The translations under genes and the position numbers were made by a program. Under the pieces are notes generated by a model, which saw only the letters and a list, made by a program, of their open reading frames with translations, had not been told where the DNA came from and searched no databases. Below, one piece after another: positions 3,887-61,594 of a stretch of 64,000 nt of DNA. The stretch's first letter is position 1. Each line of letters begins with the position of its first letter. The stretch comes from Acidobacteriota bacterium (lineage in GTDB: Bacteria; Acidobacteriota; Vicinamibacteria; Fen-336), in the NCBI GenBank assembly GCA_003222275.1, contig QHVJ01000150.1:10518-74517 (forward strand). The letters run 5' to 3'.

Positions 3887-4371
3887 GCGAGTCTCCGCAA
3901 TATTCGCGGGGGAAGGTACCATGCGAGCGTGCCGCCGTCGGCCAGCGATCCGGGTACGTCGACGAGGGCCACCCCCCCCTTCTTGAAGGTGAGCCGCTCA
4001 CCGTGCGAGGTCCCGAGCAGCCGCCCCAACAGGGTGGAGAGATCGGGCTCGTGCCCGACGATGGCTACCGTGGATTCCGCGGGAAAGCGCCCGAGGGCAG
4101 TGGCGATCTCGTTATAGCTGCCTCCGGCCAGGGCGGGCTCCTCCTCCACCTCCACCTTTCCCCACGCCTTGGCCGCGATCTCGGCCGTCTGGACGGCGCG
4201 AGGCAACGGGCTGCTGAGGAGCGTATCGGGACGCTTCATGAGCCGGGCCAGTCCCTCGGCGGCCCGCCGGAACCGCCGTACGCCCCGCTTGGTGAGGGGT
4301 CTCTCGTCGTCGGGCATGTCGGGGGCGCCGCGGGGTACAGCGGTTGCGTGTCGGATCATCAGCAATCGCAT
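3883..4371 (-). CDS. sixA: Phosphohistidine phosphatase SixA (histidine phosphatase superfamily)
   Basis: MRLLMIRHATA...LTKRG...SSPLPRAVQTAE...GHEP motifs; 162 aa. Confidence 0.75.
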   Translation of the reverse strand: MRLLMIRHATAVPRGAPDMPDDERPLTKRGVRRFRRAAEGLARLMKRPDTLLSSPLPRAVQTAEIAAKAWGKVEVEEEPALAGGSYNEIATALGRFPAESTVAIVGHEPDLSTLLGRLLGTSHGERLTFKKGGVALVDVPGSLADGGTLAWYLPPRILRRLA

Positions 4372-4450: not shown

Positions 4451-5338
4451 TCAGGCCGCGGTCCGCGAAGCGCCCATGGCCTCGAGCCCGCGGCGCACCG
4501 TGGCCGAGGGAGACAGGGCCAGGAAGGAGCGGTGATGCTGGTGGCTCCTTTCGAGGAAGAACGCCTCCTCTTCGCGGGCCGCGGCGGCGAGCGACGCCTG
4601 GCCCCGGGCGACGGCGGCCGACGCCTGGCGGCCCATCCAGCACGAGAGCACGTGGGCGTCCCGGACGTGGCCGAGCGCGTCCTGGAGCTGCCGGAAGAGC
4701 GCCGGCGCCTCGCTCGTCTGGCCCGTCATCTTCTCGGCCAGCTCGGCCGCGTAGCGAAGCCGGCGCAACCGGATCCGAAGGCGATGCAGCGGGGCGGGGT
4801 CGAAACCGTCGCCCAGGGCCTCGAGCGACTCCAGGATGGCGGTGCCGCGCACGTCCCGCGCGTCGCGCAGGCGAAGAAGCGCGGTGAAGACCAGCTCCGC
4901 CCGGTGGGAGACGACGACCCGCAGGTCGCGCCGCACGCGAGCGATGTCGATGTCCATGAGGGCCTCGGCCATCCGGACCCGGCTCCGGCTGCGCGCCGAC
5001 CGCAGGCGCTGGCGCAGCGTGCGCCGCTCGGCCTCCGTCTCTCCGCGCTCCCTCAGCCGCTCGTCGAAAAGGGCGACGCCGACGTCGAGGTCGCGGCTCG
5101 TCCCCGCCGAGCGCGTCAGCTCGCGCAGGATCCGGCGGGCCCGGCGCACCCGCCGGCCGTTGGGCTTGCGGGCGAGGAGCGGCAGCGCCACGCGCAACCG
5201 GCGGCCCGCCACCCGCATCTGGTGGATCGCCTCCTCGTCGCCGGCCAGGGCCGGCGGGAGCTGGCGGAAGAGGGCCCGGACGTGTGCCTTCAGTAGGGGA
5301 GTGGCGTGATCGACGATGGTCGTGGGCACGGCAGTCAA
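4451..5338 (-). CDS. CHAD domain-containing protein (polyphosphate-granule associated)
   Basis: CHAD signature with conserved His/Arg: HQMRVAGRRLRVAL, RLRIRLRRLRYAAEL. Basic helical protein of 295 aa. Confidence 0.8.
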   Translation of the reverse strand: MTAVPTTIVDHATPLLKAHVRALFRQLPPALAGDEEAIHQMRVAGRRLRVALPLLARKPNGRRVRRARRILRELTRSAGTSRDLDVGVALFDERLRERGETEAERRTLRQRLRSARSRSRVRMAEALMDIDIARVRRDLRVVVSHRAELVFTALLRLRDARDVRGTAILESLEALGDGFDPAPLHRLRIRLRRLRYAAELAEKMTGQTSEAPALFRQLQDALGHVRDAHVLSCWMGRQASAAVARGQASLAAAAREEEAFFLERSHQHHRSFLALSPSATVRRGLEAMGASRTAA

Positions 5339-5389
5339 TCCCGAAAGGGGAGAGGGTATACCACGTCCCCTCGTCCGAACTCAACCCTA

Positions 5390-5425
5390 TTGTCGCAGAG
5401 TCGTCACCCGGGCAAGGCTTACAAT
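5390..5425 (+). promoter_or_regulatory. Possible Pho box (TTGTCGC-agag-TCGTCAC) followed 12 bp later by -10 TACAAT, upstream of ppx
   Basis: Two 7-mers with a 4-bp spacer occupy the -35 position relative to a good -10 hexamer 8 nt before the ppx ATG. It matches the porin box CCGTCAC at 6/7 in the second half-site only. Confidence 0.3.
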
Positions 5426-5433
5426 GAGCAAAG

Positions 5434-7002
5434 ATGAGGATCGCCGCCATCGACATCGGCAGCAACTCCTTTCACATGGTCATCGTAGAGAGCCGCTCCG
5501 GCGGGTTCCACGTGATCGACCGCGAGAAGGAGATGGTCCGCCTCGGCGAGCGCACGCTTTCGCGGGGCCGGCTGTCCGCGGCCTCCATGCGGCGGGGACT
5601 CGACGCGCTGCGCGAGTACAAGCGGCTGGCGGACATGCACGGCGTCGACAAGCTCCTGGTCGTGGCCACCTCCGCCGTGCGCGAGGCCGCCAACGGCGAG
5701 GATTTTCTCGAGCGTGTGGGCGGGGAGATCGGCTTCTATCCGCAGGTCGTCTCGGGCGAGGAAGAGGCCCGGCTGATCTATCTGGCCGCGCTCCACAGCG
5801 TCAACCTCGAGGGGCGGCGTACCCTGGTGGTGGACATCGGCGGGGGCAGCGTGGAGCTGGCCATGGGGGTGGGCCCCCAGGTGGAGTGGGCCGTCTCCGA
5901 GAAGCTCGGCGTGCTGCGAATGACCGAGCGCTTCGTCCACAGCGACCCCCTGGCCGCCCGCGACGAGCGGCGCCTGGTCGGCTACGTGAGGCAGTTCATG
6001 GTGCCGCACGCCGCCCGGGCGCGGGACGACGGCTTCGACCTCGTGGTCGGGACCTCGGGGACAGCCTTGGCCCTGGGGGCCATGGCCACTGCAGCGGGAA
6101 TACTACCCGAATCGCTCCACCACCTGACGGTGCCGGCGGCCGCTCTTCACGCCCTGCGCCGGCGCCTCGTCGGGACCACGCTCAAGGGGCGCCGGCGGCT
6201 GCCCCTCATGGACGAGCGGCGCACCGACATCATCGTGGCCGGCGCCGTCGTGCTGGACGAGATACTCGACGCTCTCGAGGCGAAGGAGATCGTCCTCTGC
6301 GAGTGGGCGCTGCGCGAGGGGTTGCTGCTCGACTACTTGACGGGCCACAAGCGCGCGGTCGCGCGCGCCGAGGCGTACCCCGACGTTCGCCGCCGCAGCG
6401 TCGTGGCCCTGGCCGAGCGCTGCCATTTCCACGAGGCGCACGCGCGGCAGGTGGCCGCCCTCGCCCTGGGCCTGTTCGACGCGACGGCGTCGCGGCACGG
6501 TCTGCAGGCACCGGAGCGCTCGCTGCTCGAGTACGCCGCGCTCCTTCACGACGTCGGCCGGCACATCTCCTATCCCGACCGGCACCGGCACACCGAGTAC
6601 CTCGTCCGCAACGGCGGGCTGCGCGGCTTCGATCCCCGCGAAGTCGAGATGATGGCGCTCGTGGGGCGCTATCACCGGCGCGGCGTCCCGCGGAAGAAGA
6701 ACCTGGCCTTCGCCGCGCTGGCCCGTCCCGACCGCGAAGCCGTGCGCATGATGGCGGGGCTCCTGCGGCTGGCCGACGCGCTCGATCGCAGCCATCGCGG
6801 CGTCGTCAAGGCGGTGGCCGTCTCCGAGACGTCACGGGGCCTGCGCTTGCGCTGCGAGGCGGAGGGCGACGCCGGCCTGGAGCAGTGGGCGTCGGGACGG
6901 CGGGTCGATCTGCTGGAGCGCGCGCTCGACCGGGCGATCCAGGTCGAATTCGCGCCCGTGCCCGCGGCCACCGCGGTGCGCGCGCGAGCGGCGGGCGCCT
7001 GA
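5434..7002 (+). CDS. ppx: Exopolyphosphatase / guanosine pentaphosphate phosphohydrolase (Ppx/GppA) with C-terminal HD domain
   Basis: Ppx/GppA N-terminus IAAIDIGSNSFHMVIVE...VATSAVREAANGEDF. HD region LLHDVGRHISYPDRHRHTEYL. Confidence 0.85.
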   Translation: MRIAAIDIGSNSFHMVIVESRSGGFHVIDREKEMVRLGERTLSRGRLSAASMRRGLDALREYKRLADMHGVDKLLVVATSAVREAANGEDFLERVGGEIGFYPQVVSGEEEARLIYLAALHSVNLEGRRTLVVDIGGGSVELAMGVGPQVEWAVSEKLGVLRMTERFVHSDPLAARDERRLVGYVRQFMVPHAARARDDGFDLVVGTSGTALALGAMATAAGILPESLHHLTVPAAALHALRRRLVGTTLKGRRRLPLMDERRTDIIVAGAVVLDEILDALEAKEIVLCEWALREGLLLDYLTGHKRAVARAEAYPDVRRRSVVALAERCHFHEAHARQVAALALGLFDATASRHGLQAPERSLLEYAALLHDVGRHISYPDRHRHTEYLVRNGGLRGFDPREVEMMALVGRYHRRGVPRKKNLAFAALARPDREAVRMMAGLLRLADALDRSHRGVVKAVAVSETSRGLRLRCEAEGDAGLEQWASGRRVDLLERALDRAIQVEFAPVPAATAVRARAAGA

Positions 7003-8612: not shown

Positions 8613-10765
8613 TGAAGGCCCCCGGACGGCCGCGCAAGAAGGAGCCCGAGCTCTTCATCAACCGGGAGCTGTCCTGGCTGGAGTTCAACGGCCGCGTGCT
8701 CGAAGAAGCGATGGACCCCGCCACCCCGCTGCTGGACCGGCTGAAGTTCGCCATCATCGTCTCGACGAACCTCGACGAGTTCTTCATGGTCCGGGTGGCG
8801 GCTCTGAAGCACGCATTCGCGGAGGGCGACAACGAGCCCGACCTCGCCGGGCTGCGCCCGCGCCAGCAGCTGCACGTGATCGCCGAGCGCGCTCATGAGA
8901 TGGTGGACACCCTGGGCCGGACCCTGACCGAGCAGATCCTGCCCGCGCTCGCCGAGCACGCCGTGCGCATCGTCCCCCTGGCCACGCTGGAGGAGGCGCA
9001 GCGCACGTTCCTCGCCCGTTACTTCCGCGGGGAGGTGCTTCCCGCCCTCACGCCGCTGGCCACCGACGCCTCGCGGCCCTTTCCCCGGCTGGCCAACCTC
9101 AGCCTGAACCTCGCGATCCTCCTCGCGCCCGGCGAGGGCGAGGAGCAGCCGCGGCTGGCCCTCGTCCAGGTTCCGGGCGGGCTGCGGCGGCTGGTGCGGC
9201 CGGTCGGAGGTGAGGGCAGCACCTACGTGCTCCTCGAAGAGGTCATCCGTGCCGAGCTGGCCGAGCTGTTCCCCGGCCAGCGGGTGCTGGCCTCGGCCGC
9301 CTTCCGCATCGCCCGCGACGCGGAGATAGAGCTGGACGACGAGGGCGGCCGGCCCTACCTGGAAACGGTGGAGGAGGAGCTGAAGAAGCGTCGCAGCAGT
9401 CAGATCGTCCGCCTGGAGGTCGAGTCGGAGGCGGACGACGCGCTGCTCGCCCTGCTGCTGGAGCGCCTGGGGGTAGAGATCCCTGACGTCTACCACGTCC
9501 GCGGCCCGCTGGACATGCGGGCGCTGCAGCCGCTCGTCGACATTCCCTCCCTGGAGCACCTGCGGGAGCCGGCCCTGAAGCCCCTCCCGGTGCTCGACGA
9601 GCACGAGCTGCGCAACATCTTCTCGGTCGTGGCCGAGCGCGACGTGCTCCTCTACCACCCCTTCGACTCGTACGAGCCGGTCCTCGCCTTCCTGTCGACC
9701 GCCGCCTCCGATCCCGACGTGCTGGCCATCAAGCAGACCCTCTACCGCACGAGCGGCGATTCCCCGGTGGTGCAGGCGCTGGCCCGGGCGGCGGAGAACG
9801 GCAAGCAGGTCACGGTGGTGGTGGAGCTGATGGCCCGCTTCGACGAGCAGTCGAACATCCGGTGGGCGAAGAGCCTCGAGGAATCGGGCGCCCACGTGAT
9901 CTACGGCATCCAGGGGTTCAAGACGCACGCCAAGGTCTGCCTCGTCGTCCGTCGCGGCCGGCAGGGTATCGAGCGCTACGTCCACATGGGCACCGGCAAC
10001 TACAACGACCGCACCGCGCGCGTCTACGCCGACTTCGGCTCCCTGACCGCGGACCGGGTCGTGGGCGAGGACGTGTCGGCCTTCTTCAACGCGCTCACCG
10101 GCTACTCCGACCCGCCGAAGATGAAAAAGCTGGCCATGGCTCCGACCAACCTCCGCGAGCGCTTCCTTCGCCTCATCGAGCGCGAGCGGCGCCGGGCGGA
10201 GGAGGGGCAGGCGGCGGAGATCCGGGCCAAGATGAACTCCCTCGTCGACGAGGAGATCATCCGCGCCCTCTACGATGCGTCCGGGGCCGGCGTGCGGATC
10301 CGGCTCAACGTGCGCGGCATCTGCTGCCTGCGTCCGGGCATCAAGGGCGTCAGCGAGACGATCGAGGTGATCTCCATCGTGGACCGCTTCCTCGAGCACG
10401 CGCGCGTCTACCAATTCCGCAACGGCGGCGACGAGGAGGTGTACCTCTCCAGCGCCGACTGGATGCCCCGGAACCTGGACCGCCGGATCGAGCTGCTCTT
10501 CCCGGTGACCGCGCCCGAGCCGCGCCGAAAGGTCCTCGAGGTGATGGACGCCATGTTCCTCGACAACGTGAAGGCTCGGCGACTCATGCCGGACGGGACC
10601 TACAAGCGCAAGCGACCGCCCAAGGGCGAGGAACCCTATCGCGCCCAGATCCAGCTCTACCGCGAGTGGAAGAGGACCCTGGAGCGCACTCGGGCCGCGA
10701 CGAGCGTTGCGTTCGAGCCGGCCCCCGCCCCCGGACCCGTCGAGAAGGTATCGTCGACCGGATGA
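8609..10765 (+). CDS. ppk: Polyphosphate kinase 1
   Basis: 718 aa; PPK1 N-terminus FINRELSWLEFNGRVLEEA and PLD-like C-terminal domains (HAKVCLVVRR). ATGA overlap with the upstream ppx. Confidence 0.9.
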   Translation: MMKAPGRPRKKEPELFINRELSWLEFNGRVLEEAMDPATPLLDRLKFAIIVSTNLDEFFMVRVAALKHAFAEGDNEPDLAGLRPRQQLHVIAERAHEMVDTLGRTLTEQILPALAEHAVRIVPLATLEEAQRTFLARYFRGEVLPALTPLATDASRPFPRLANLSLNLAILLAPGEGEEQPRLALVQVPGGLRRLVRPVGGEGSTYVLLEEVIRAELAELFPGQRVLASAAFRIARDAEIELDDEGGRPYLETVEEELKKRRSSQIVRLEVESEADDALLALLLERLGVEIPDVYHVRGPLDMRALQPLVDIPSLEHLREPALKPLPVLDEHELRNIFSVVAERDVLLYHPFDSYEPVLAFLSTAASDPDVLAIKQTLYRTSGDSPVVQALARAAENGKQVTVVVELMARFDEQSNIRWAKSLEESGAHVIYGIQGFKTHAKVCLVVRRGRQGIERYVHMGTGNYNDRTARVYADFGSLTADRVVGEDVSAFFNALTGYSDPPKMKKLAMAPTNLRERFLRLIERERRRAEEGQAAEIRAKMNSLVDEEIIRALYDASGAGVRIRLNVRGICCLRPGIKGVSETIEVISIVDRFLEHARVYQFRNGGDEEVYLSSADWMPRNLDRRIELLFPVTAPEPRRKVLEVMDAMFLDNVKARRLMPDGTYKRKRPPKGEEPYRAQIQLYREWKRTLERTRAATSVAFEPAPAPGPVEKVSSTG

Positions 10766-11292
10766 GGCTCTTTGCCGGCCGCGCGTGGCCGGGCCTCGGC
10801 CTGGCCGCGGCCGTCATCGTGTCGCTCGGCGTGGGCGCGATCGAGCCGGTGGCGGCGGCTCCGCGCGCCGCCCGGAAGACGGTGGCGAAGAAGGCCCCGG
10901 CGAAGAAAGCGCCTCGGAAGAAGCCGGCGCCGAAGAAGAAGAAGGTCGTGGGCCTCGACCTGCCGCCGCTGCCGCCCGGCCGGAGCTGTTACCGGGCGGA
11001 CACCGAAGTGCCGGAGCCGCCGCTGCTGAAGACGGCCGAGATCAAGGTGGACGACAAGGCGCGGGGTGGCCTCCTCAAGTCCGTGCTGCTCGTCTACGAG
11101 GTGACCGTGGACAAGAGCGGGCGCATCTCGGAGGTGAGGACCATCGGCGAGCGGCCAAAGGAGCCGCCGTGGCCACAGCTCCATGACGCGGCCATCGCGG
11201 CCCTGAAGCAATACAAGTACGCGAAGACGGTCGTGCGGGGGGCGGCGGCTCCGGTGTGCCTCATGATCAGCCTCAACGTGGACCTTCGATGA
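10762..11292 (+). CDS. TonB-like energy-transducer family protein (signal/TM anchor, Lys/Pro-rich linker, TonB_C-like domain)
   Basis: Start MRLFAGRAWPGLGLAAAVIV at an ATGA overlap with the ppk stop. KKAPAKKAPRKKPAPKKKK linker, then a C-terminal domain resembling TonB C-terminus. Confidence 0.45.
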   Translation: MRLFAGRAWPGLGLAAAVIVSLGVGAIEPVAAAPRAARKTVAKKAPAKKAPRKKPAPKKKKVVGLDLPPLPPGRSCYRADTEVPEPPLLKTAEIKVDDKARGGLLKSVLLVYEVTVDKSGRISEVRTIGERPKEPPWPQLHDAAIAALKQYKYAKTVVRGAAAPVCLMISLNVDLR

Positions 11293-11302
11293 GCGAGACC
11301 GA

Positions 11303-11785
11303 ATGAGCAACTCGGAGGAAACGAAGAAACGGGCTGCGCGCGGAGGCGAATTCATTTCGCCGGAGCGCGCGGGGGGTCAGGGGGGGTGCGACGCAGCACC
11401 CCCCCTGCTCAGTGACGAACAGCGGGTTGCCTTCGACCGGGGGGTGGCCGAGTTCAACACCGGGTACTACTTCGAGTGCCACGATACGCTGGAGGACATG
11501 TGGACCGGAATCCGCGGCCCGTCCCGGGACTTCTTCCAGGGGCTCATCCAGGTCTCGGTCGCGTTCTACCACCTCAATGGAGGCAACCTGCCGGGGGCGG
11601 AGAGCATGCTCCGGCGCGCGCTCAAGCGCTTCGCGCGCTACCCGGACCGCTACTTCGGCTTCGACCTCGCCGCCCACCGCGAAGAGCTGCAAGCGTGGCT
11701 CGACCGGATCGTGTCGGCGCGCGTGGAGGGCCTCACCGTCGCCGACCTGCCCAAGTGGAGCTTCGGTCCTCCGGAGCCCGGATGA
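11303..11785 (+). CDS. DUF309 domain protein
   Basis: FNTGYYFECHDTLEDMWTG...GLIQVSVAFYHL motif block. The N-terminal 35 codons contain the 45-bp G-run repeat element, so the true start may be the internal GTG near 11444. Confidence 0.55.
   Translation: MSNSEETKKRAARGGEFISPERAGGQGGCDAAPPLLSDEQRVAFDRGVAEFNTGYYFECHDTLEDMWTGIRGPSRDFFQGLIQVSVAFYHLNGGNLPGAESMLRRALKRFARYPDRYFGFDLAAHREELQAWLDRIVSARVEGLTVADLPKWSFGPPEPG
11365..11410. repeat. G-run hairpin element GCGGGGGGTCNGGGGGGGTGCG-N-AGCACCCCCC (copy inside the 5' region of the DUF309 ORF)
   Basis: About 90% identical over 45 bp to 54441..54486 (intergenic). A more diverged relative lies at 51452..51484. Confidence 0.45.
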
Positions 11786-28986: not shown

Positions 28987-30009
28987 ATGAGAGCTCGAGA
29001 CGCGGCCGTCGCCCTGGCCCTCGCCGCCGCCGCGGCCGTGCCCGCGGCCGCCCAGAACCTGCAGATCAACGGGGCGGGCGCGACGTTCCCGTATCCGATC
29101 TATTCCAAGTGGTTCTCCGAGTACAACAAGCTGCACCCGACGATCCAGATCAACTACCAGTCGATCGGGTCCGGCGGGGGCATCCGGCAGCTCACCAACC
29201 AGACGGTGTTCTTCGGGGCCAGTGACGGCCCGATGACCGCCGATCAGATCCAGGCGGCGGGGGCCCGAATCCTGCACTTGCCGGCCGTGCTGGGCGGCGT
29301 GGTTCCCGTCTATAACATCCCCGACCTTTCCGGCGAGCTCCGTTTCAGCGGGCCGCTCCTGGCCGACGTCTTCCTGGGCAAGGTCACCAGGTGGAACGAT
29401 CCGGCCATCGCCCGCGAGAACCCCGGAGTGACGCTTCCGGGGAGCGACATCACGGTCGTGCACCGGTCGGACGGATCCGGCACCACGTACATCTGGGTCG
29501 ATTACCTCGCGAAGGTGTCGCCGGAGTGGAAGCAGAGGGTCGGGGTCGCGACCTCCGTCAACTGGCCGGTGGGAGTGGGCGGCAAGGGCAACGAGGGCGT
29601 GGCGGGCCTCGTCAAGCAGACACCCGGATCCATCGGCTACGTCGAGCTGATCTACGCCCTGCAGAACAAGATCGCATATGGCGCGGTCAGGAACATGGAC
29701 GGCAATTACGTGAAGGCGTCGCTCGACACGATCACCCAGGCCGCGGCCGCCACTGAAGGAAAGATGCCGGCCGACTTCCGGGTCTCCATCACCAACGCAC
29801 CCGGCAAGAACGCGTATCCGATCGCTTCTTTCACCTGGCTGCTCTTCTACGAGTCGCCGAAGGACAAGGATCGGGCGCGGGCGATGGTGGACTTCATGAA
29901 ATGGGCGCTCGGCGACGGCCAGAAATACGCCGCGGATCTGGGCTATGCCCCGCTGCCCGCCAGTGTGGTGAAGCTGGAGCTGGCCGCGCTCAGCCGGATC
30001 AAGATTTAA
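28987..30009 (+). CDS. pstS: Phosphate ABC transporter substrate-binding protein PstS
   Basis: GAGATFPYPIYSKWF...SIGSGGG...HRSDGSGTT PstS motifs; signal peptide. Confidence 0.9.
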   Translation: MRARDAAVALALAAAAAVPAAAQNLQINGAGATFPYPIYSKWFSEYNKLHPTIQINYQSIGSGGGIRQLTNQTVFFGASDGPMTADQIQAAGARILHLPAVLGGVVPVYNIPDLSGELRFSGPLLADVFLGKVTRWNDPAIARENPGVTLPGSDITVVHRSDGSGTTYIWVDYLAKVSPEWKQRVGVATSVNWPVGVGGKGNEGVAGLVKQTPGSIGYVELIYALQNKIAYGAVRNMDGNYVKASLDTITQAAAATEGKMPADFRVSITNAPGKNAYPIASFTWLLFYESPKDKDRARAMVDFMKWALGDGQKYAADLGYAPLPASVVKLELAALSRIKI

Positions 30010-30081
30010 CGCAGCGTTAACCGGGGCGCAATGCGTCGTTTACCTCGGCGGCCTATTGTTGGGTGATCCCAGGAGACGCCA

Positions 30082-31164
30082 ATGACTCGCTCCCTCCGTC
30101 GTCTCGTCGTCCTCTGGGCCGGCCTGGCCGCCGCCTGTTCGGGCGGCGGGGCGCCCCAACGTCAGACCTCGACGCTGCCGGCCGGCGAAGCGTCCGCCGG
30201 TCCCTCGGCCGCTCCGGGGCAGATCAACGGCGCGGGCGCCACGTTCCCGTACCCCATCTACTCGAAGTGGTTCTCGGAGTACAACAAGATCCGTCCCGAC
30301 GTCCGGATCAACTACCAGTCGATCGGCTCGGGCGGCGGCATCCGCCAGCTCACCAACCAGACGGTCTTCTTCGGCGCCACCGACGGGCCCATGACCGAAG
30401 AGCAGCTGAAGGCCGCTCCGGGCCCGATCGTCCACCTGCCCACGGTCCTGGGGGGCGTGGTGCCCGCCTACAACCTGTCCGGCCTTTCCGCCGAGCTGCG
30501 CTTCAGCGGGCCCCTCCTCGCCGACATCTTCCTGGGCAAGGTCAAGAAGTGGAACGACCCGGCCGTGGCCAGGGAAAACGCGGGCGCGAAGCTTCCCGCC
30601 ATGGACATCACCGTCGTGCATCGTTCGGACGGCTCGGGCACCACCTACATCTGGGTGGATTACCTCTCGAAGGTCTCGCCGGAGTGGAAGGACCGGGTCG
30701 GGGTGGCGACGTCGGTGAACTGGCCGGTGGGCGTGGGCGGGAAGGGCAACGAGGGCGTGGCCGGCCTCGTCAAGCAGACGCCGGGATCCATCGGCTACGT
30801 CGAGCTGATCTACGCCACCCAGAACAACATCGCCTACGGCTCGGTGAAGAACGCGGCCGGCAAGTACGTGAAGGCCTCCCTGCCCTCGGTGACGGCGGCG
30901 GCCGCCTCCAGCGTCGACACGATGCCGGCCGACTTCCGCGTCTCGATCACGAACGCTCCCGGGGAGGACGCGTATCCGATCTCGTCCTACACCTGGCTGC
31001 TCCTCTACGAGCATCCCGCGGACAAGGAACGCGCGCGCATCATCGTGGACTTCATGAAGTGGGCCCTCACGGGCGGCCAGAAGTACGCGCCCGAGCTCGG
31101 CTACGCGCCCCTGCCCGAGAAGGTCGTCGGGCGGGAGCTCGAAGCCCTCACGAAGATCGGATAG
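30082..31164 (+). CDS. pstS: Phosphate ABC transporter substrate-binding protein PstS (second paralog, lipoprotein-type signal)
   Basis: About 80% identical to the upstream PstS over the mature domain; lipobox LAAAC. Confidence 0.9.
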   Translation: MTRSLRRLVVLWAGLAAACSGGGAPQRQTSTLPAGEASAGPSAAPGQINGAGATFPYPIYSKWFSEYNKIRPDVRINYQSIGSGGGIRQLTNQTVFFGATDGPMTEEQLKAAPGPIVHLPTVLGGVVPAYNLSGLSAELRFSGPLLADIFLGKVKKWNDPAVARENAGAKLPAMDITVVHRSDGSGTTYIWVDYLSKVSPEWKDRVGVATSVNWPVGVGGKGNEGVAGLVKQTPGSIGYVELIYATQNNIAYGSVKNAAGKYVKASLPSVTAAAASSVDTMPADFRVSITNAPGEDAYPISSYTWLLLYEHPADKERARIIVDFMKWALTGGQKYAPELGYAPLPEKVVGRELEALTKIG

Positions 31165-50398: not shown

Positions 50399-51448
50399 CA
50401 ATGCGGCGATCCGGGCCAGGCTCTCGGTGTAGGGCTCCCGGGCGATTCCGTTCTCGGTGATGATCGCGCTGACGTAGCGGTGGGGCGTGACGTCGAACGC
50501 GGGATTGCGCACCGCGACGCCTTCGGGGGCCATGCGCCGCCCGCCGTGGTGGGTCACCTCCGCGGCCGCCCGCTCCTCGATGGGAATGCCGTCGCCCGAG
50601 GGAGTGGCGAGGTCGATCGTGGAGACGGGCGCGGCCACGTAGAAGGGCAGGCCGTTCTCGTGGGCGAGGACGGCCACGGTGTAGGTGCCGATCTTGTTCG
50701 CGACGTCCCCGTTGGCGGCGATGCGGTCGGCTCCCACCACCACCGCGTCCACCTCTCCCCGCGCCATGAGGTGGCCGGCCATGCTGTCGGCGATGAGCGT
50801 GGTGGCGATCCCGTCCTGGGCCAGCTCCCATGCCGTCAGCCGCGCGCCCTGCAGGTGGGGACGGGTCTCGTCGGCGAAGACGTTCACCACCTTGCCCTGC
50901 CGCGCCGCGGAGCGGATCACCCCGAGGGCGGTGCCGTAACCTGCCGTCGCCAGCGCCCCCGCGTTGCAGTGGGTCAGGAGCCGGGCCCGAGGTGGGATCA
51001 GCTCCGCTCCGATGTCGCCCATGCGCCGGCACGCGGCGAGGTCCTCGGACTGCATCGCCAGCGCCTCGTCGAGCAGCGCCTGCCTGACGGCGGCGCCGCC
51101 GCGAGCCTGCTCGGTCTCGAACCGGCGGCGCATCCGCGCGATGGCCCAGAACAGGTTGATGGCGGTCGGGCGCGTGGACGCGAGCTCCTGGCAGATGCCG
51201 TCGAGCTCGGCGCGCAGCGCGGGCCCTTCCCCCGCCGCGTTGCGCACGCCCAGGGCGATGCCGAAGGCCGCGGCCACGCCGATGGCGGGCGCGCCCCGGA
51301 TGGCCATGTCCTTGATCGCGGCCGCCACCTCCGCGTGGCTCCGGCAGCGGATCATCACCTGCTCGGCGGGCAGCCGCCGCTGGTCGATGAGCACCACTTC
51401 GCCGTCCTGCCACTCCACGGTGGGGACCATTCGAGGATCGTAATGCAA
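50336..51448 (-). CDS. mtnA: S-methyl-5-thioribose-1-phosphate isomerase MtnA (eIF-2B alpha/beta/delta family)
   Basis: [16 protein letters not shown]-terminus and eIF2B-like Rossmann core. The start may be Met7 (51430). The C-terminal ~21 residues are encoded by the repeat element. Confidence 0.8.
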
Positions 51449-51621
51449 TTCGGGGGGGTAAGAGCATGCGAAAGCACCCCCCCGCGCGCATTCGCGCTCC
51501 CCCCCAAGTCGCTGACTCGAGTGCAGACCGAGCGTAGCGAGGTCCCGCGGGCGCGGCTCCGCTCGGCGGAGGCGCGCAGCAATCGCTTCGCTCGCTGCTA
51601 CGTGCTACCTGCTCCATCTTC

Positions 51622-54389: not shown

Positions 54390-54454
54390 GCGTTCCCAAA
54401 TTGCAAGGCTGCGAGCGAAGCGCGATTCACTCGCGCGCAGCGAGCGGGGGGTCT

Positions 54455-54479
54455 GGGGGGGTGCGCCGCTAGCACCCCC
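54455..54479. terminator. GC-rich hairpin (GGGGGGTGC-7nt-GCACCCCCC) between convergent NHL genes; part of the G-run repeat family
   Basis: 9-bp perfect stem with a 7-nt loop in a 94-bp convergent intergenic region. No obvious U-tract, so possibly a bidirectional factor-independent or Rho-assisted terminator. Confidence 0.35.
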
Positions 54480-54483
54480 CAGC

Positions 54484-55683
54484 TCACTTGACGCCCCAGG
54501 GCGTCCCCTGGTCCGGCTTCACCGGCCCGAGACCCTTGTAGACGAACTTCTGCAGGCGCTTCCCTTCGTAGGTCTCGGTGGTGTAGATGTTCCCCTTCGA
54601 ATCGGTGGCGATGCTGTGAACGCCGAAGAACTGGCCCGGCTGGCGCCCGCCGTCGCCGAACGCCGTGAGGATCTTCAGCGTGTCGCGGTCGAGGATGTAG
54701 ACCTTCTCGTTCTTGCCGTCGGCGAGGTAGAGGTACTTCTGCCGGGGATCCTTCGAGAAGGCGATGTCCCAGACCGAGCCGTCGCCCAGCGTCTTCTTCG
54801 CGATGAACGTCTCCTTCACGAAGCTCCCGTCCTTCTGGAACACCTGGATGCGGTCGTTCGGGCGGTCGCAGACGTACAGGAGGCCGTCGTTCGCCAGCTC
54901 CGCGCAGTGGACCGGCGTGCGGAACTGCTGAGCGGGCAGGGCCGCGGGGTCGTAGTTCCCCAGGTCCGTGTCGTCGGGCTTGTGGCCGTAGGCGCCCCAG
55001 TAGCGCTTGAACTTCCCGGTGTCGGCGTCGATCACCACCACCCGCTTGTTGCCGTAGCCGTCGGCGATGTACGCCTCGTTGGCCTTCGGATCGACGAAGA
55101 TCTTCGCGACCTGGCCGAAGTTCTCCATGTCGTTGCTGCCCTTGCCCTGGCCCTGGTGCCCGAACTGCATCAGGAACTTCCCGTCGCGCGTGAACTTCAC
55201 GACGTGGGCATCGCCCTTGGCGTTGCCGCCGATCCAGACGTTGCCCTTGTCGTCGGCGGTGATGCCGTGGTTCGAGGCGGGCCATTCGTAGCCCGGCCCG
55301 GGGCCGCCCCAGTGCCCGACCAGGTTCCCGGCCGGATCGAACTCCAGGATGGGCGGCGCGGGCAGGCAGCAGTCCTCCGCGCTCGGCGGGGTCGAGGCGA
55401 GGCCGATCTCCGTCCGCGCGTTGAGCGTGCCCGCGCCTCGATGGACGATGAACACGTGGTCACGCGCGTCCACCGAGACGCCCACGGCGGAGCCCAGGAC
55501 CCAGTGGTTCGGCAGGGGCTTCGGCCACAGCGGGTCCACTTCGAACCGCGGCGCCTGGACCGCGCCCGCCGCTTGCGCGGCCGCCTTCGCCGCGAGCGCC
55601 GCCTGGCCGGCGCCGAGGGCGGCGAGCACGGCGAGGAACGACGCTCCCACGAGGACGTTGTGCGTCTGCCTCGATCGTGCCAT
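54484..55683 (-). CDS. Secreted NHL-repeat beta-propeller protein (second, convergent)
   Basis: Signal peptide; NHL blades (VFIVHRG, VWIGGNAKGD, AYIADGYGN, LYVCDRPNDRIQVF, LYLADGKNEKVYILD, IYTTETYEG). Confidence 0.7.
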   Translation of the reverse strand: MARSRQTHNVLVGASFLAVLAALGAGQAALAAKAAAQAAGAVQAPRFEVDPLWPKPLPNHWVLGSAVGVSVDARDHVFIVHRGAGTLNARTEIGLASTPPSAEDCCLPAPPILEFDPAGNLVGHWGGPGPGYEWPASNHGITADDKGNVWIGGNAKGDAHVVKFTRDGKFLMQFGHQGQGKGSNDMENFGQVAKIFVDPKANEAYIADGYGNKRVVVIDADTGKFKRYWGAYGHKPDDTDLGNYDPAALPAQQFRTPVHCAELANDGLLYVCDRPNDRIQVFQKDGSFVKETFIAKKTLGDGSVWDIAFSKDPRQKYLYLADGKNEKVYILDRDTLKILTAFGDGGRQPGQFFGVHSIATDSKGNIYTTETYEGKRLQKFVYKGLGPVKPDQGTPWGVK

Positions 55684-59219: not shown

Positions 59220-60368
59220 TCAGGCCGCTCTCGCGGTGACCCCGAGGATCCGGCCGAACACGTCCGTGGCGCGCTTCATCTCGTCGAGCGTGCCGATCGA
59301 GACCCGCACGTGGCTCTTCTCCAGAGGCGGGAAGTCCCGCGCCACGAGCACGCCCTGCTCGCGGCAGGTGTCGCGGAAGGCCTTCGCCGGGCGCTTGATG
59401 TCGACGAACACGAAGTTGGTCTGCGAGTCCGTGGACGCGAAGCCCGCCTTGGAGAACCAGTCGATCGTGAACCGCCGGGCCTCGGTGTTGCGCGCGCTCT
59501 CGCGCTGGAGCCGGGCCTGGTCCTGGATGGACGCGGTGGCGGCGACGATGCCGGCCACGTTCAGGGCCATCGACCCCTCCCAGTCGAGCCGCTTGATCGT
59601 CTCGGGGTGCCCGATCGCGTAGCCGACGCGCATGCCCGCCATCCCGTGCGCCTTGGAGAACGTGCGCGCCACCACCACCCGCGGGTCCTTGACCGCGCGC
59701 GCCGCCTGCGTGCGGTGGGACGGATCGGTGACGTAGTCGTGGTACGCCTCGTCGATCAGGACGAGGGCGTCGGGCGCCGCGGAGTGCACGCGCTCGATGA
59801 ACGCGTCCACCGCGTCGCCGGTGAGGAGGGTGGCGGTGGGGTTGTTGGGGTTGTTGAGGAACACCAGGCCCGCGCCCTTCGCGGCCTCGGCCATCGCGTC
59901 CAGGTCGAGCTTGAGCGAGCGGTCGAGCGGGATCGCGCGCACCGGCGTGCCGATGAGGTCGGCGTAGCCCGCGCACTCCTCGTAGGTGAGCTGGCCCGCG
60001 ACCAGCGGCTTCGCGGGCGAGGTGAACGTCTGCACCGCCACCCGCAGCACCTGGGTCGAGCCGCAGCCGCTCGTCACGTTCTCGGGGCTCACGCCGAACT
60101 TCTCGGCGATGGCCTGGTGGAGATGCGCCACGTGCTCGAAGGGATAGCGGCCGGCCGGACCGCCTTCGGCGAGGGCGCGGCGCACGGAGTCGAGGACGGC
60201 CTCGCCCGGGCCCAGCGGGTTCTCGTTGTTGTGGAGGAGCAGCGGCCGGGGCGGGCGCGCCGCCCCCGACCCCTGGAAGAGCCCGGCCCAGGCCTCGCGG
60301 CGGGCCGCGAGCAGGCTGGCTCCGCCGATGCCCACCGTCTTCACGAACGCGCGGCGCGTGAACGACAT
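59220..60368 (-). CDS. Class I/II PLP-dependent aminotransferase (HisC-like) with N-terminal Tat signal peptide
   Basis: Start MSFTRRAFVKTVGIGGASLLAA after RBS AGGAGG. LNNPNNPT...SKAHGMAGMRVGY (PLP lysine) block. The 59220..62738 ORF is a read-through artefact merging this gene with antisense sequence. Confidence 0.8.
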   Translation of the reverse strand: MSFTRRAFVKTVGIGGASLLAARREAWAGLFQGSGAARPPRPLLLHNNENPLGPGEAVLDSVRRALAEGGPAGRYPFEHVAHLHQAIAEKFGVSPENVTSGCGSTQVLRVAVQTFTSPAKPLVAGQLTYEECAGYADLIGTPVRAIPLDRSLKLDLDAMAEAAKGAGLVFLNNPNNPTATLLTGDAVDAFIERVHSAAPDALVLIDEAYHDYVTDPSHRTQAARAVKDPRVVVARTFSKAHGMAGMRVGYAIGHPETIKRLDWEGSMALNVAGIVAATASIQDQARLQRESARNTEARRFTIDWFSKAGFASTDSQTNFVFVDIKRPAKAFRDTCREQGVLVARDFPPLEKSHVRVSIGTLDEMKRATDVFGRILGVTARAA

Positions 60369-60397
60369 GTCTGCCTCCTTGCGCGGCATGCCCGCCC

Positions 60398-61594
60398 TCA
60401 CCGGGGCCTCCGGGGTTCGTTCACCGACCCGGCCGGGGCCGGCCGGCCCCCGCCGAGCACCTCGGCGATGACCACCCCCGCCCGCTGCATCTCGTCGATC
60501 GTGCCGATGGAGACGCGCGCGTGGGTCTTCTGGAGCGGCGGGAACTCGCGTCCGACCAGGATGCCGCGCCGCGCGCAGTCTTCCTTGAACGCCTTGGCGG
60601 GGCGGCCGATGTCGACGAACACGAAGTTGGCCTGCGAGTCCATGACCCGGAAGCCCATGTCCTTGAAGATGCGCGTCGTGAACGCCCGCGCCTCGGTGTT
60701 GCGCGCGCGCTCGGCCTCGATGTGGGCGGGATCGTCCAGCGCCGCGATCGCCGCGGCGACGGCGAGCGAGTTCTGGTTGAACGTGATCCCCCAGCGGTTG
60801 AAGGCGTCCATCGTGTGCTTCTGGCCGATCGCGTAGCCCACGCGCATCCCGGCCATGCCATAGGCCTTGGAGAGCGTGCGCGCGACGATGACGTTCGGGT
60901 GCTCGAGGGCGAGCGGCACCGCGGTGGCGTAGCCGGGATCCGTCACGTAGTCGTGATAGGCCTCGTCGACGAGGATGGCGGTCTCCGGCGATTCCTGGCC
61001 GACGCGCGCGATGAAGTCCGCCACCGCGCGGGCCGGGTGGAGCGTGCTCGTGGGGTTGTTCGGGTTGCACAGGAACACCAGCCCCGCCCAGCGGGCCGCC
61101 TGCGCCATCGCGTCGAGGTCGAGCCGGCCGTCCTTGTCGACCGGGACCCGCCGCACGCCGATGCCGAGCTGGTCGGCCATCTTCTCGGGCATCTCGAAGG
61201 TCGGCGCCGCCGTGACCAGCGGCCGCGACGACGACGTGTAGAGACGCACCGCGATGCGCAGCAGCTCCCAGGAGCCCGAGCCCATCGACACGTTCTCCGG
61301 CTTCACGGAGTTGCGGCGGGCGATCGCCTCGCGTAGGTCGCCCATCGAGGGCCGCGCGTTGGTGGGGTAGCGTCCCGCGTCGACGAAGGCGCGCGTCAGC
61401 GCCTCCATCGCCGCCCGGCCCGGGCCGAGCGGGTTCTCGTTGCTGTCGAGCAGGATCTTGGCTTCGGAGCGCGGGGTCGGCGCGGCGCCTCCGGCCGTGA
61501 ACGCCTCGCGGCCGCGGGCGGCGACGATGGCCGGGGAGTAGGCTGCGGTCCCGGGCGAGATGGCGCCCAGGAACGAGCGTCGGGAGACCGGCAT
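60398..61594 (-). CDS. Class I/II PLP-dependent aminotransferase (HisC-like) with N-terminal Tat signal peptide, paralog
   Basis: Start MPVSRRSFLGA after RBS GAGGAGG. LCNPNNPT...SKAYGMAGMRVGY. About 55-60% identical to the downstream paralog. Confidence 0.8.
   Translation of the reverse strand: MPVSRRSFLGAISPGTAAYSPAIVAARGREAFTAGGAAPTPRSEAKILLDSNENPLGPGRAAMEALTRAFVDAGRYPTNARPSMGDLREAIARRNSVKPENVSMGSGSWELLRIAVRLYTSSSRPLVTAAPTFEMPEKMADQLGIGVRRVPVDKDGRLDLDAMAQAARWAGLVFLCNPNNPTSTLHPARAVADFIARVGQESPETAILVDEAYHDYVTDPGYATAVPLALEHPNVIVARTLSKAYGMAGMRVGYAIGQKHTMDAFNRWGITFNQNSLAVAAAIAALDDPAHIEAERARNTEARAFTTRIFKDMGFRVMDSQANFVFVDIGRPAKAFKEDCARRGILVGREFPPLQKTHARVSIGTIDEMQRAGVVIAEVLGGGRPAPAGSVNEPRRPR

Follow-up and report, generated by a model that had tools for sequence, protein, structure and literature searches.

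A double-hairpin repeat within the DUF309 gene of an acidobacterium: probably one of an interspersed family, read through from a displaced start codon

MITEs such as the Correia elements of Neisseria are non-autonomous repeats of ~100 nt that lie near gene ends and can donate expression signals or codons, and the miniature elements derived from IS200/IS605 (PATEs) are moved as single-stranded hairpin DNA. Rickettsia palindromic elements (RPEs) are reportedly inserted in protein-coding genes and read through as extra residues. RPEs are also named in a paper on REPs (PMC3733652), in which the donation of stop codons by REP termini and the presence of REPs within protein termini are already documented and REP families are distinguished by the tags GTAG and CGTC (Di Nocera et al., 2013, PMC3733652).

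The window, by which we mean the whole 64-kb stretch of DNA that was analyzed, carries a repeat of this general kind inside its DUF309 gene (copy 1, Table 1). We consider it highly probable that copy 1 belongs to a family of interspersed repeats of ~86-89 nt in soil Acidobacteria and is now inserted and read through in DUF309, a judgment that covers family membership and read-through insertion jointly and not the mechanism of transposition. The initial annotation had drawn attention to a G-run hairpin here, an observation that is confirmed but was understated, the repeat being 89 nt long (11325-11413) rather than 45 and comprising two stem-loops, SL1 and SL2. The 45-mer itself is real: at 11365-11410 it matches 54441-54486 in 40 of 46 positions (~87%, where ~90% had been given), it lies within the annotated N terminus of DUF309 (ORF 11303-11785) as had been said, and it encodes ...AGGQGGCDAAPPLL. 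The diverged third copy that had been proposed also exists, but the interval assigned to it, 51452-51484, covers no more than its second hairpin; the whole is a long-form copy that spans ~51445-51601 on the minus strand. Copies 1 and 2 are identical at 74 of 89 positions (83%), and a repeat search of the window returned an 80-nt match between 11332-11411 and 54407-54486.

Table 1. Positions of the repeat copies, their parts and the DUF309 locus in the window. R1 is a covariance model built from repeat copies; copies 1 and 2 are both part of its training alignment.
Feature	Position	Strand	Remarks
Copy 1, short form, 89 nt	11325-11413	+	Inside the DUF309 ORF, codons 8-37; R1 90.3 bits, model positions 1-87 of 87
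SL1 of copy 1	11336-11370	+	Outer stem GCGCGC/GCGCGC, 3x3 internal loop, inner stem GGCGAA/TTCGCC, loop TTCAT; MFE fold
First G-run (G6) of copy 1	11371-11376	+	Unpaired in the consensus fold
SL2 of copy 1	11378-11407	+	CAGGGGGGGTGC / loop GACGCA / GCACCCCCCCTG
Copy 2, short form	54400-54488	+	R1 90.4 bits; between two convergent NHL-repeat genes
Copy 3, long form	51445-51601	-	Alignment with long-form copies; R1 only 10 bits because its SL1 is interrupted
57-nt module splitting the SL1 loop of copy 3 between GATT and CACTC	51524-51580	-	
Empty site matching a long-form copy of the 89%-identical contig L213	62867-62939	-	
Upstream 176-aa gene, stop 11290-11292	10762-11292	+	No Pfam family
Remnant of the ancestral DUF309 start (ATGA over the stop of the 176-aa gene), now MSETE and stop	11289-11306	+	
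DUF309 ORF as now translated, 160 aa	11303-11785	+	Start ATG 11303, 10 nt after the upstream stop
Downstream flanking gene, 510 aa	11782-13311		No Pfam family

That this is an ordinary conserved coding region whose similarity to other sequences reflects chance low complexity has next to no probability, even in a GC-rich genome with many G and C runs. There are exactly two occurrences of the double-G-run motif GGGGGGTCWGGGGGGGTGCG in the 64-kb window, whereas none of 100 shuffles gave two or more, and G7T..AC7 hairpins are present at 11380-11405 and 51452-51483 with 0 expected by chance. The segment is moreover missing in most orthologues, and it has at least 129 other copies with covarying stems. 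These were found with a 24-base signature, GATTCACTC-N9-16-G6-N2-20-G6TGC, in at least 120 loci on soil metagenome contigs, and R1 detects more of them on these contigs, as many as 4-5 in 13-14 kb. No match to the signature was found in viral contigs. The full architecture (stem, GATTCACTC loop, stem, G6-7, short spacer and G7TGC hairpin) was present in MAGs labeled Acidobacteria, Vicinamibacteria and Rokuibacteriota (Rokubacteria), where it was identified by re-screening matches to the second hairpin only (G7TGC-N3-12-GCAC6) for complete copies. As a family marker that second-hairpin pattern was itself rejected as too generic, with at least 117 loci in all phyla. An "Acidobacteria bacterium" MAG encodes a protein that matches the window's DUF309 protein at 100% identity, and another part of the window has 72% DNA identity to a Vicinamibacteria MAG. 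The window itself belongs to an Acidobacteria MAG of probably Vicinamibacteria-like affiliation.

One of two readings offered by the initial annotation was a small mobile hairpin element, to be checked by counting copies and comparing homologues, and both comparisons bear it out. The copy search, run here with the signature pattern, shows that the element is not unique to the window; the N-terminal peptide is not conserved, as most DUF309 orthologues are without the 25-aa segment; and a relative with ~90% identity (L002) is without the copy. The family appears to be undescribed in Rfam and in the literature searched. Rfam gave no matches in the window at the gathering threshold and, at E ≤ 1 in L163, L118 and L213, only an unrelated weak SorX match away from the element; literature searches on REP or palindromic repeats in Acidobacteria and on the loop sequence found no description of it. 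Of 10 contigs of the window's own population that carry the upstream gene, four (L253, L255, L256 and L257) break off within the element or directly behind it, as is usual for repeats in assemblies; in L253 and L255 a T-to-C change produces a C8 run just before the break, probably through assembly confusion with other copies.

The repeat unit consists of a 5' tail (AGCaACgG), SL1 with its GATTCACTC loop, an unpaired G6, a 3-nt spacer, SL2 (G6-7TGC, loop, GCAC6-7) and a 3' tail (GCTCAAT). The short form, to which copies 1 and 2 belong, is ~86 nt long and begins AGCaACgG-CTGCG, while the long form, represented by copy 3, opens with GTAG at its 5' end, carries an additional mini-hairpin in the space separating the G-runs and has a longer loop in its second hairpin. 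Long-form copies in L127, L150, L154, L165 and L191 begin, like copy 3, with GTAGCAGCG; copy 3 continues from GTAG-CAGCGAGCG... through a G7 run and the mini-hairpin AGCGCGAATGCGCGC to G7TGC...AC7, and its end lies ~15-20 nt upstream of the mtnA ATG (51430, minus strand). Copy 2 is 92-96% identical to copies in L174, L123 and L175, and fills the gap between its convergent NHL neighbors, its 3' GCTCA overlapping the stop codon of the minus-strand gene at 54484-54486. All eight tandem arrays examined are head-to-tail (L163 x4, L135 x3, L151, L173, L197, L200, L216 and L224), with a period of 78-84 nt in, for example, L163 and L135.

The 57-nt module of copy 3 occurs at the same position of the SL1 loop in L130 (~953-1010) and L167, and thus in three different host copies in all. 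It has a covarying hairpin of its own and represents either an optional additional domain or an insertion nested site-specifically in the repeat. Contigs L130 and L155 were ruled out as a clean filled and empty pair for this module, the difference between them being an 83-nt indel; their DnaB helicase genes differ by a 1.28-kb intein, found in L130 (3958-5241; CVTAETL...VSHNS) and missing from the 94-96% identical L155 (~4320-4337). The window also contains two pairs of tandem paralogous segments, at 29061-30518 and 59242-61124, that are 70-80% identical and spaced ~1.16 and 1.21 kb.

The double G-run hairpin recurs in a second family, which has no SL1: its units read G7-N3-G7TGC-NNN-GCAC7 and continue with TCAAAGAAAGC or a near variant. 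This family was seen in L060, L067, L109 and L103, and in the last of these the two units (5120-5174, plus strand; 5369-5437, minus strand) form an inverted pair ~190 nt apart. G7TGC...GCAC7 hairpins were likewise found on several contigs of the same genome, namely L019, L025 and L115 of one Planctomycetota MAG and L061, L066, L091 and L119 of one Rokubacteria MAG. Given this recurrence within single genomes of other phyla, palindromic repeats with G-runs and C-runs may be widespread in soil and groundwater bacteria.

Family membership and the covariation of the hairpins are matters of observation. In an alignment of 69 non-redundant copies (copy 1 and 68 others), both stem-loops are supported by covariation, with 13 of 23 pairs changing on both sides and a score of 0.173 vs. 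0.048 in shuffles; none of 500 shuffles reached the observed value, and slid controls gave at most 0.025. The inner-stem pairs of SL1 covary (GC:53/CG:16 and GC:55/CG:12), its outer stem alternates between a tandem G.A mismatch and G-C/C-G pairs, and the basal pair of SL2 covaries as well (UA:40, CG:9, AU:8). The SL1 loop has the family consensus GATTCACTC, which in copy 1 reads TTCAT. Folding, which the initial annotation had also suggested, gave -61 kcal/mol for the 96-nt region at copy 1 (z = -6.2). As for the G-quadruplex or i-motif that the G- and C-runs might form, the perfect GC hairpin SL2 is a strong competitor for any such alternative structure. The unpaired first G-run may matter, since it is conserved across the repeat family, four of its six columns in the 69-copy alignment being invariant and two nearly so (≥90%).

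Among described elements with hairpins, an integron attC site was considered and rejected, the ends of the repeat not fitting the RYYYAAC/GTTRRRY cores and its copies being dispersed among housekeeping genes (ppk, mtnA and moeA are among the neighbors). Nor does the unit resemble an intrinsic terminator, as the hairpins are strong but no U-tract follows them; what follows is AGCTCAAT on one strand and AGACCCCCCGC on the other.

Presence and absence of copies between close relatives can be observed directly. The cleanest comparison is between L177 and L175, where an 85-nt element sits at a stop codon in the former, with a new TGA supplied by the element's end, and the latter is empty. At the DUF309 locus, L002 (~89-90% DNA identity over 20 kb) is without the copy, for a net difference of 89 nt, and a long-form copy in L213 (2150-2275) corresponds to an empty site in the window. 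The ORF upstream of this L213 copy runs on to a TGA within the 5' end of the element, and a permease gene has its ATG directly after the 3' end. Two of the comparisons are not clean, as 27 nt and ~39 nt of the empty allele have apparently been replaced rather than split; the 27 nt are those of L002, encoding PPVAAPLLT, which have no counterpart in the window. The ancestral DUF309 sequence at the site (GCCGCACCCCTCCTCAC) resembles the element's 3' end, and the target in the L213/window comparison resembles its 5' end. Homology-assisted integration is possible, on the strength of two cases only. No target-site duplication was detected in L177/L175, window/L002 or L213/window, where divergence of 10-15% blurs the junctions.

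The distribution of filled alleles at DUF309 is not a simple one. Some lineages that have them (74-86%) are more distant from the window than is the empty L002 (~89%), a pattern that calls for loss, recombination or repeated insertion. In L001 (93% identical) the 89 nt are absent, the last ~26 nt of the element are retained and the old start is in use again, which is best read as a secondary 89-nt deletion that revived the old start. In L004, SL1 has been lost and the G-runs have decayed.

The gene order ppk / 176-aa gene / DUF309 / 507-aa gene is conserved in the relatives examined. In L001, L002 and L003 there is a 4-nt overlap between the DUF309 start and the upstream stop, and the 135-aa orthologues have a GTGA overlap. 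Most DUF309 homologues are of this short form, and a clade at 74-100% identity has 25 extra residues. The insertion had originally been described as in-frame. Its net length of 89 nt is no multiple of 3 and the old start is dead, so that this description fails for the original start; the frame is nevertheless restored, by a different ATG at 11303. In L244, L245 and L004, the ATG or GTG equivalent to 11303 re-establishes a 4-nt overlap with the upstream stop. There is no in-frame ATG, GTG or TTG from ATG 11303 to codon 48 (GTG 11444). The Pfam DUF309 domain comprises amino acids 44-102, and four residues (P34, L36, A43 and G47) are invariant in 32 of 32 aligned sequences (the window protein and 31 homologues), element-free ones included. 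The invariant residues thus begin at P34, upstream of GTG 11444. Taken together, the lack of an alternative in-frame start and the invariant residues indicate that translation must begin at 11303 and cross the element; the call of a start codon at 11303 is right, and on these sequence grounds the segment is probably translated. Read-through peptides predicted from the ORF include SNSEETK and AGGQGGCDAAPPLLSDEQR. No stop interrupts the ORF in filled orthologues at 74-99% identity.

The other original reading, in which DUF309 starts at a downstream GTG and the element is a structure of the 5' UTR, does not stand up to these data. GTG 11412 is in another frame, and the only in-frame GTG, 11444 (V48), lies within the Pfam domain, so that a start there would lose the first 4 Pfam positions, A43 and G47, both of them invariant, and F44, which is nearly so. 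The conservation of an ATG or GTG equivalent to 11303, which in three orthologues overlaps the upstream stop, and the absence of frame-disturbing indels in filled orthologues at 74-93% identity also weigh against an untranslated leader, whether it ends at GTG 11444 or at the rare start CTG 11405. On the other hand, no strong or clear Shine-Dalgarno sequence precedes ATG 11303, frames can be open by chance in GC-rich DNA, and many REPs annotated as N-terminal are really extragenic (Di Nocera et al., 2013, PMC3733652). On balance we regard an untranslated element as very unlikely.

Slipped-strand changes in the length of the G6, G7 and C7 runs, which would make DUF309 phase-variable, appear more improbable still. 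The ORF does contain three homopolymer runs of at least 6, and in one protein (P0013) the domain follows on from another upstream frame, probably because a run has changed in length. However, run lengths are constant in all eight of the population contigs (of 10) that cover the runs; no off variants were found among these, and only two kinds of point substitution were seen. In P0013 the same DNA is read in frame +2, and the DUF309 frame is regained at the C-run, which suggests that the continuity of the ORF matters and the peptide sequence itself is unconstrained.

A history consistent with read-through insertion can be proposed for the locus. The DUF309 start would first have overlapped the upstream stop (GTGA/ATGA) in a ppk / 176-aa gene / DUF309 operon, and because of this overlap a copy landing just after the stop would have fallen within the first dozen codons of DUF309. 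The net gain of 89 nt would have moved the old start out of frame, and the gene would have survived because ATG 11303 is in frame with the remainder. The ribosome would then read through both hairpins, adding ~25 residues, with the element's own 3' arm supplying A-P-P-L-L at the position of the ancestral PxL. The 3' arm of SL2 in copy 1 does encode the APPL of the conserved PxL motif, and APPLL falls at the exact ancestral PxL-x6-AF spacing. The 27-nt leader preceding the copy (11298-11324) was ruled out as a part of the repeat, being confined to orthologous DUF309 loci.

The hairpins have been retained in the filled orthologues by compensatory changes (TGC/GCA to GGC/GCC or CGC/GCG, and GAA/TTC to GAG/CTC), the sole non-Watson-Crick pairs being G.T on the sense strand, and SL1 is 85-97% identical among them vs. 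66-87% at third codon positions of the domain. This pattern hints at function or gene conversion over neutral junk, and the hairpins may still be acting, for instance on the mRNA of the upstream genes as a 3'-end or stability element. The repeat could accordingly be viewed as a functional cis-acting module rather than selfish DNA, that is, as a terminator, a 3'-end stabilizer or a stop-proximal regulator, which at DUF309 would act on the mRNA by ending or stabilizing the ppk / 176-aa transcript or by tuning DUF309 translation. In addition to the compensated hairpins and the conservation of SL1 beyond that of synonymous sites, the conservation of the loop and unpaired G-run across phyla speaks for such a role, as does the excess of G.U-type over A.C-type pairs (16 to 7) on the plus strand family-wide.

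Placement is the other argument for a cis-acting role, and stop-codon-flush placement was observed on both sides of the repeat. The flanks of the 129 copies listed were scored with a crude GC3-based coding-frame caller. Among these matches, a convergent gene was called in 58 of 123 evaluable 3' flanks, with its stop 0-16 nt past the C-run in 49 of the 58; on the same side, among the matches listed, an ORF ends inside the element in eight cases, seven of them at the TGA of the first loop. A same-strand gene ends in 30 of 111 evaluable 5' flanks among these matches, and 22 of the 30 stops lie within -8 to +11 nt of the element. The element often occupies the entire spacer between convergent genes, filling the gap exactly. 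In the 3' flanks of L130b, L139, L145, L153, L197b, L207 and L228, convergent ORFs enter the element for ~52-60 nt and end at the SL1-loop TGA, so that their last ~20 residues are repeat-encoded.

Other observations are difficult to reconcile with a dedicated regulatory module. No U-tract follows the hairpins on either strand, and copies face either way relative to the genes beside them, some preceding starts, lying in spacers between divergent genes or forming head-to-tail arrays. L001 and L004 have deleted or degraded the copy yet retain the gene, and the CGC/GCG variants occur elsewhere in the family, which means that gene conversion could explain the compensatory changes. We rate a cis-acting function as rather unlikely as the primary explanation, and it is in any case compatible with a mobile repeat, as for REPs.

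The mechanism by which a mobile repeat of this kind would have spread could take more than one form. First, hairpin DNA could be transposed in single-stranded form through an HUH/RAYT-like enzyme, which we put forward tentatively as a possibility short of even chances. A tblastn search with an E. coli RayT sequence and a regular-expression search for HUH/Y motifs found no transposase in 1.6 Mb of loci, a sample too small to be informative, and an inverted pair of copies in L135 flanks an amino-acid permease rather than a transposase. Second, the element could be a protein-recognized, stop-codon-proximal module common to Acidobacteria and Rokubacteria, which enters gene termini by homology-assisted replacement rather than cut-and-paste, brings its own stops and starts, rewrites the N and C termini of host proteins and acts as a 3'-end or termination-coupled regulatory structure. 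The hints at such a module are the compensatory hairpin changes in the DUF309 ORF, the conserved unpaired G-run, targets that resemble the element's ends at two empty sites and the eight proteins that end inside copies; the codons in question are present, as the SL1 loop and each terminal sequence have a TGA and the ends have an ATG. As a complete scenario we nonetheless think it improbable.

The importance of these results lies mainly in the annotation, assembly and repeat biology of uncultivated soil bacteria. Where proteins of these uncultivated soil Acidobacteria have N- or C-terminal extensions with much G, P, A and R, the extension can be repeat-derived, and the 160-aa form of DUF309 is a lineage-specific chimera. 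The locus offers a worked example of a gene that outlives a frame-breaking early insertion by switching its start, with the repeat replacing a conserved motif. The family is abundant, reaching one copy per 3-5 kb on some contigs; it breaks metagenome assemblies and marks gene ends with unusual precision; the covariance model R1 is now usable to mask the family or to take a census of it.

The element behaves like REP/BIME or MITE-type non-autonomous repeats, being multicopy, present or absent between relatives, arranged in tandem arrays and flush with stops. With REP/BIME it shares short, imperfect, GC-rich palindromes at high copy number (SL1 of ~35 nt and SL2 of ~30 nt here), a position in the spacers at gene ends with stop codons provided by the repeat termini, occasional intragenic copies at protein N or C termini, clustering into arrays, insertion of other small elements into the repeat and, in the long form, the GTAG start. 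It differs in that its unit is a fixed head-to-tail pair of unlike hairpins with a conserved unpaired G-run between them, and in that the same loop is found in Acidobacteria and Rokubacteria MAGs. Membership in the RAYT-REP system is not established, because the short form (copy 1) is without a GTAG or CGTC tag, the arrays are head-to-tail whereas REP dimers are mostly head-head or tail-tail, and no RAYT gene is linked to the repeat in the 1.6 Mb of loci, too small a sample for the absence to mean much.

Like the Correia elements, this is a ~100-nt non-autonomous repeat by gene ends that is present or absent between strains. Unlike MITEs, it has no terminal inverted repeats, the ends AGCaACgG... 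and ...GCTCAAT not being complementary apart from a weak TGAGC/GCTCA match in a subset of copies, and no target-site duplication was detected. PATEs resemble it in that a hairpin lies close to either end, neither inverted terminal repeats nor a target duplication are present, and arrays run head-to-tail, as could arise by insertion next to an existing end; here, however, the two hairpins are unlike each other, and no TnpA gene or defined target tetranucleotide was identified.

At DUF309, finally, the element would seem to work like an RPE incorporated into a protein. In both cases a palindromic repeat lies in a coding gene and is read through without destroying the protein, as start-codon logic and the conserved residues suggest for the present locus. 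The two have no sequence relationship, most copies of the present family are intergenic, and at DUF309 the net inserted length is not divisible by 3, the gene having been saved by a switch to another start codon. REP/BIME and the RPEs of Rickettsia are the closest analogues: the repeat is a new family of a known kind, and a repeat insertion read through as extra protein is a type of event that was already known.
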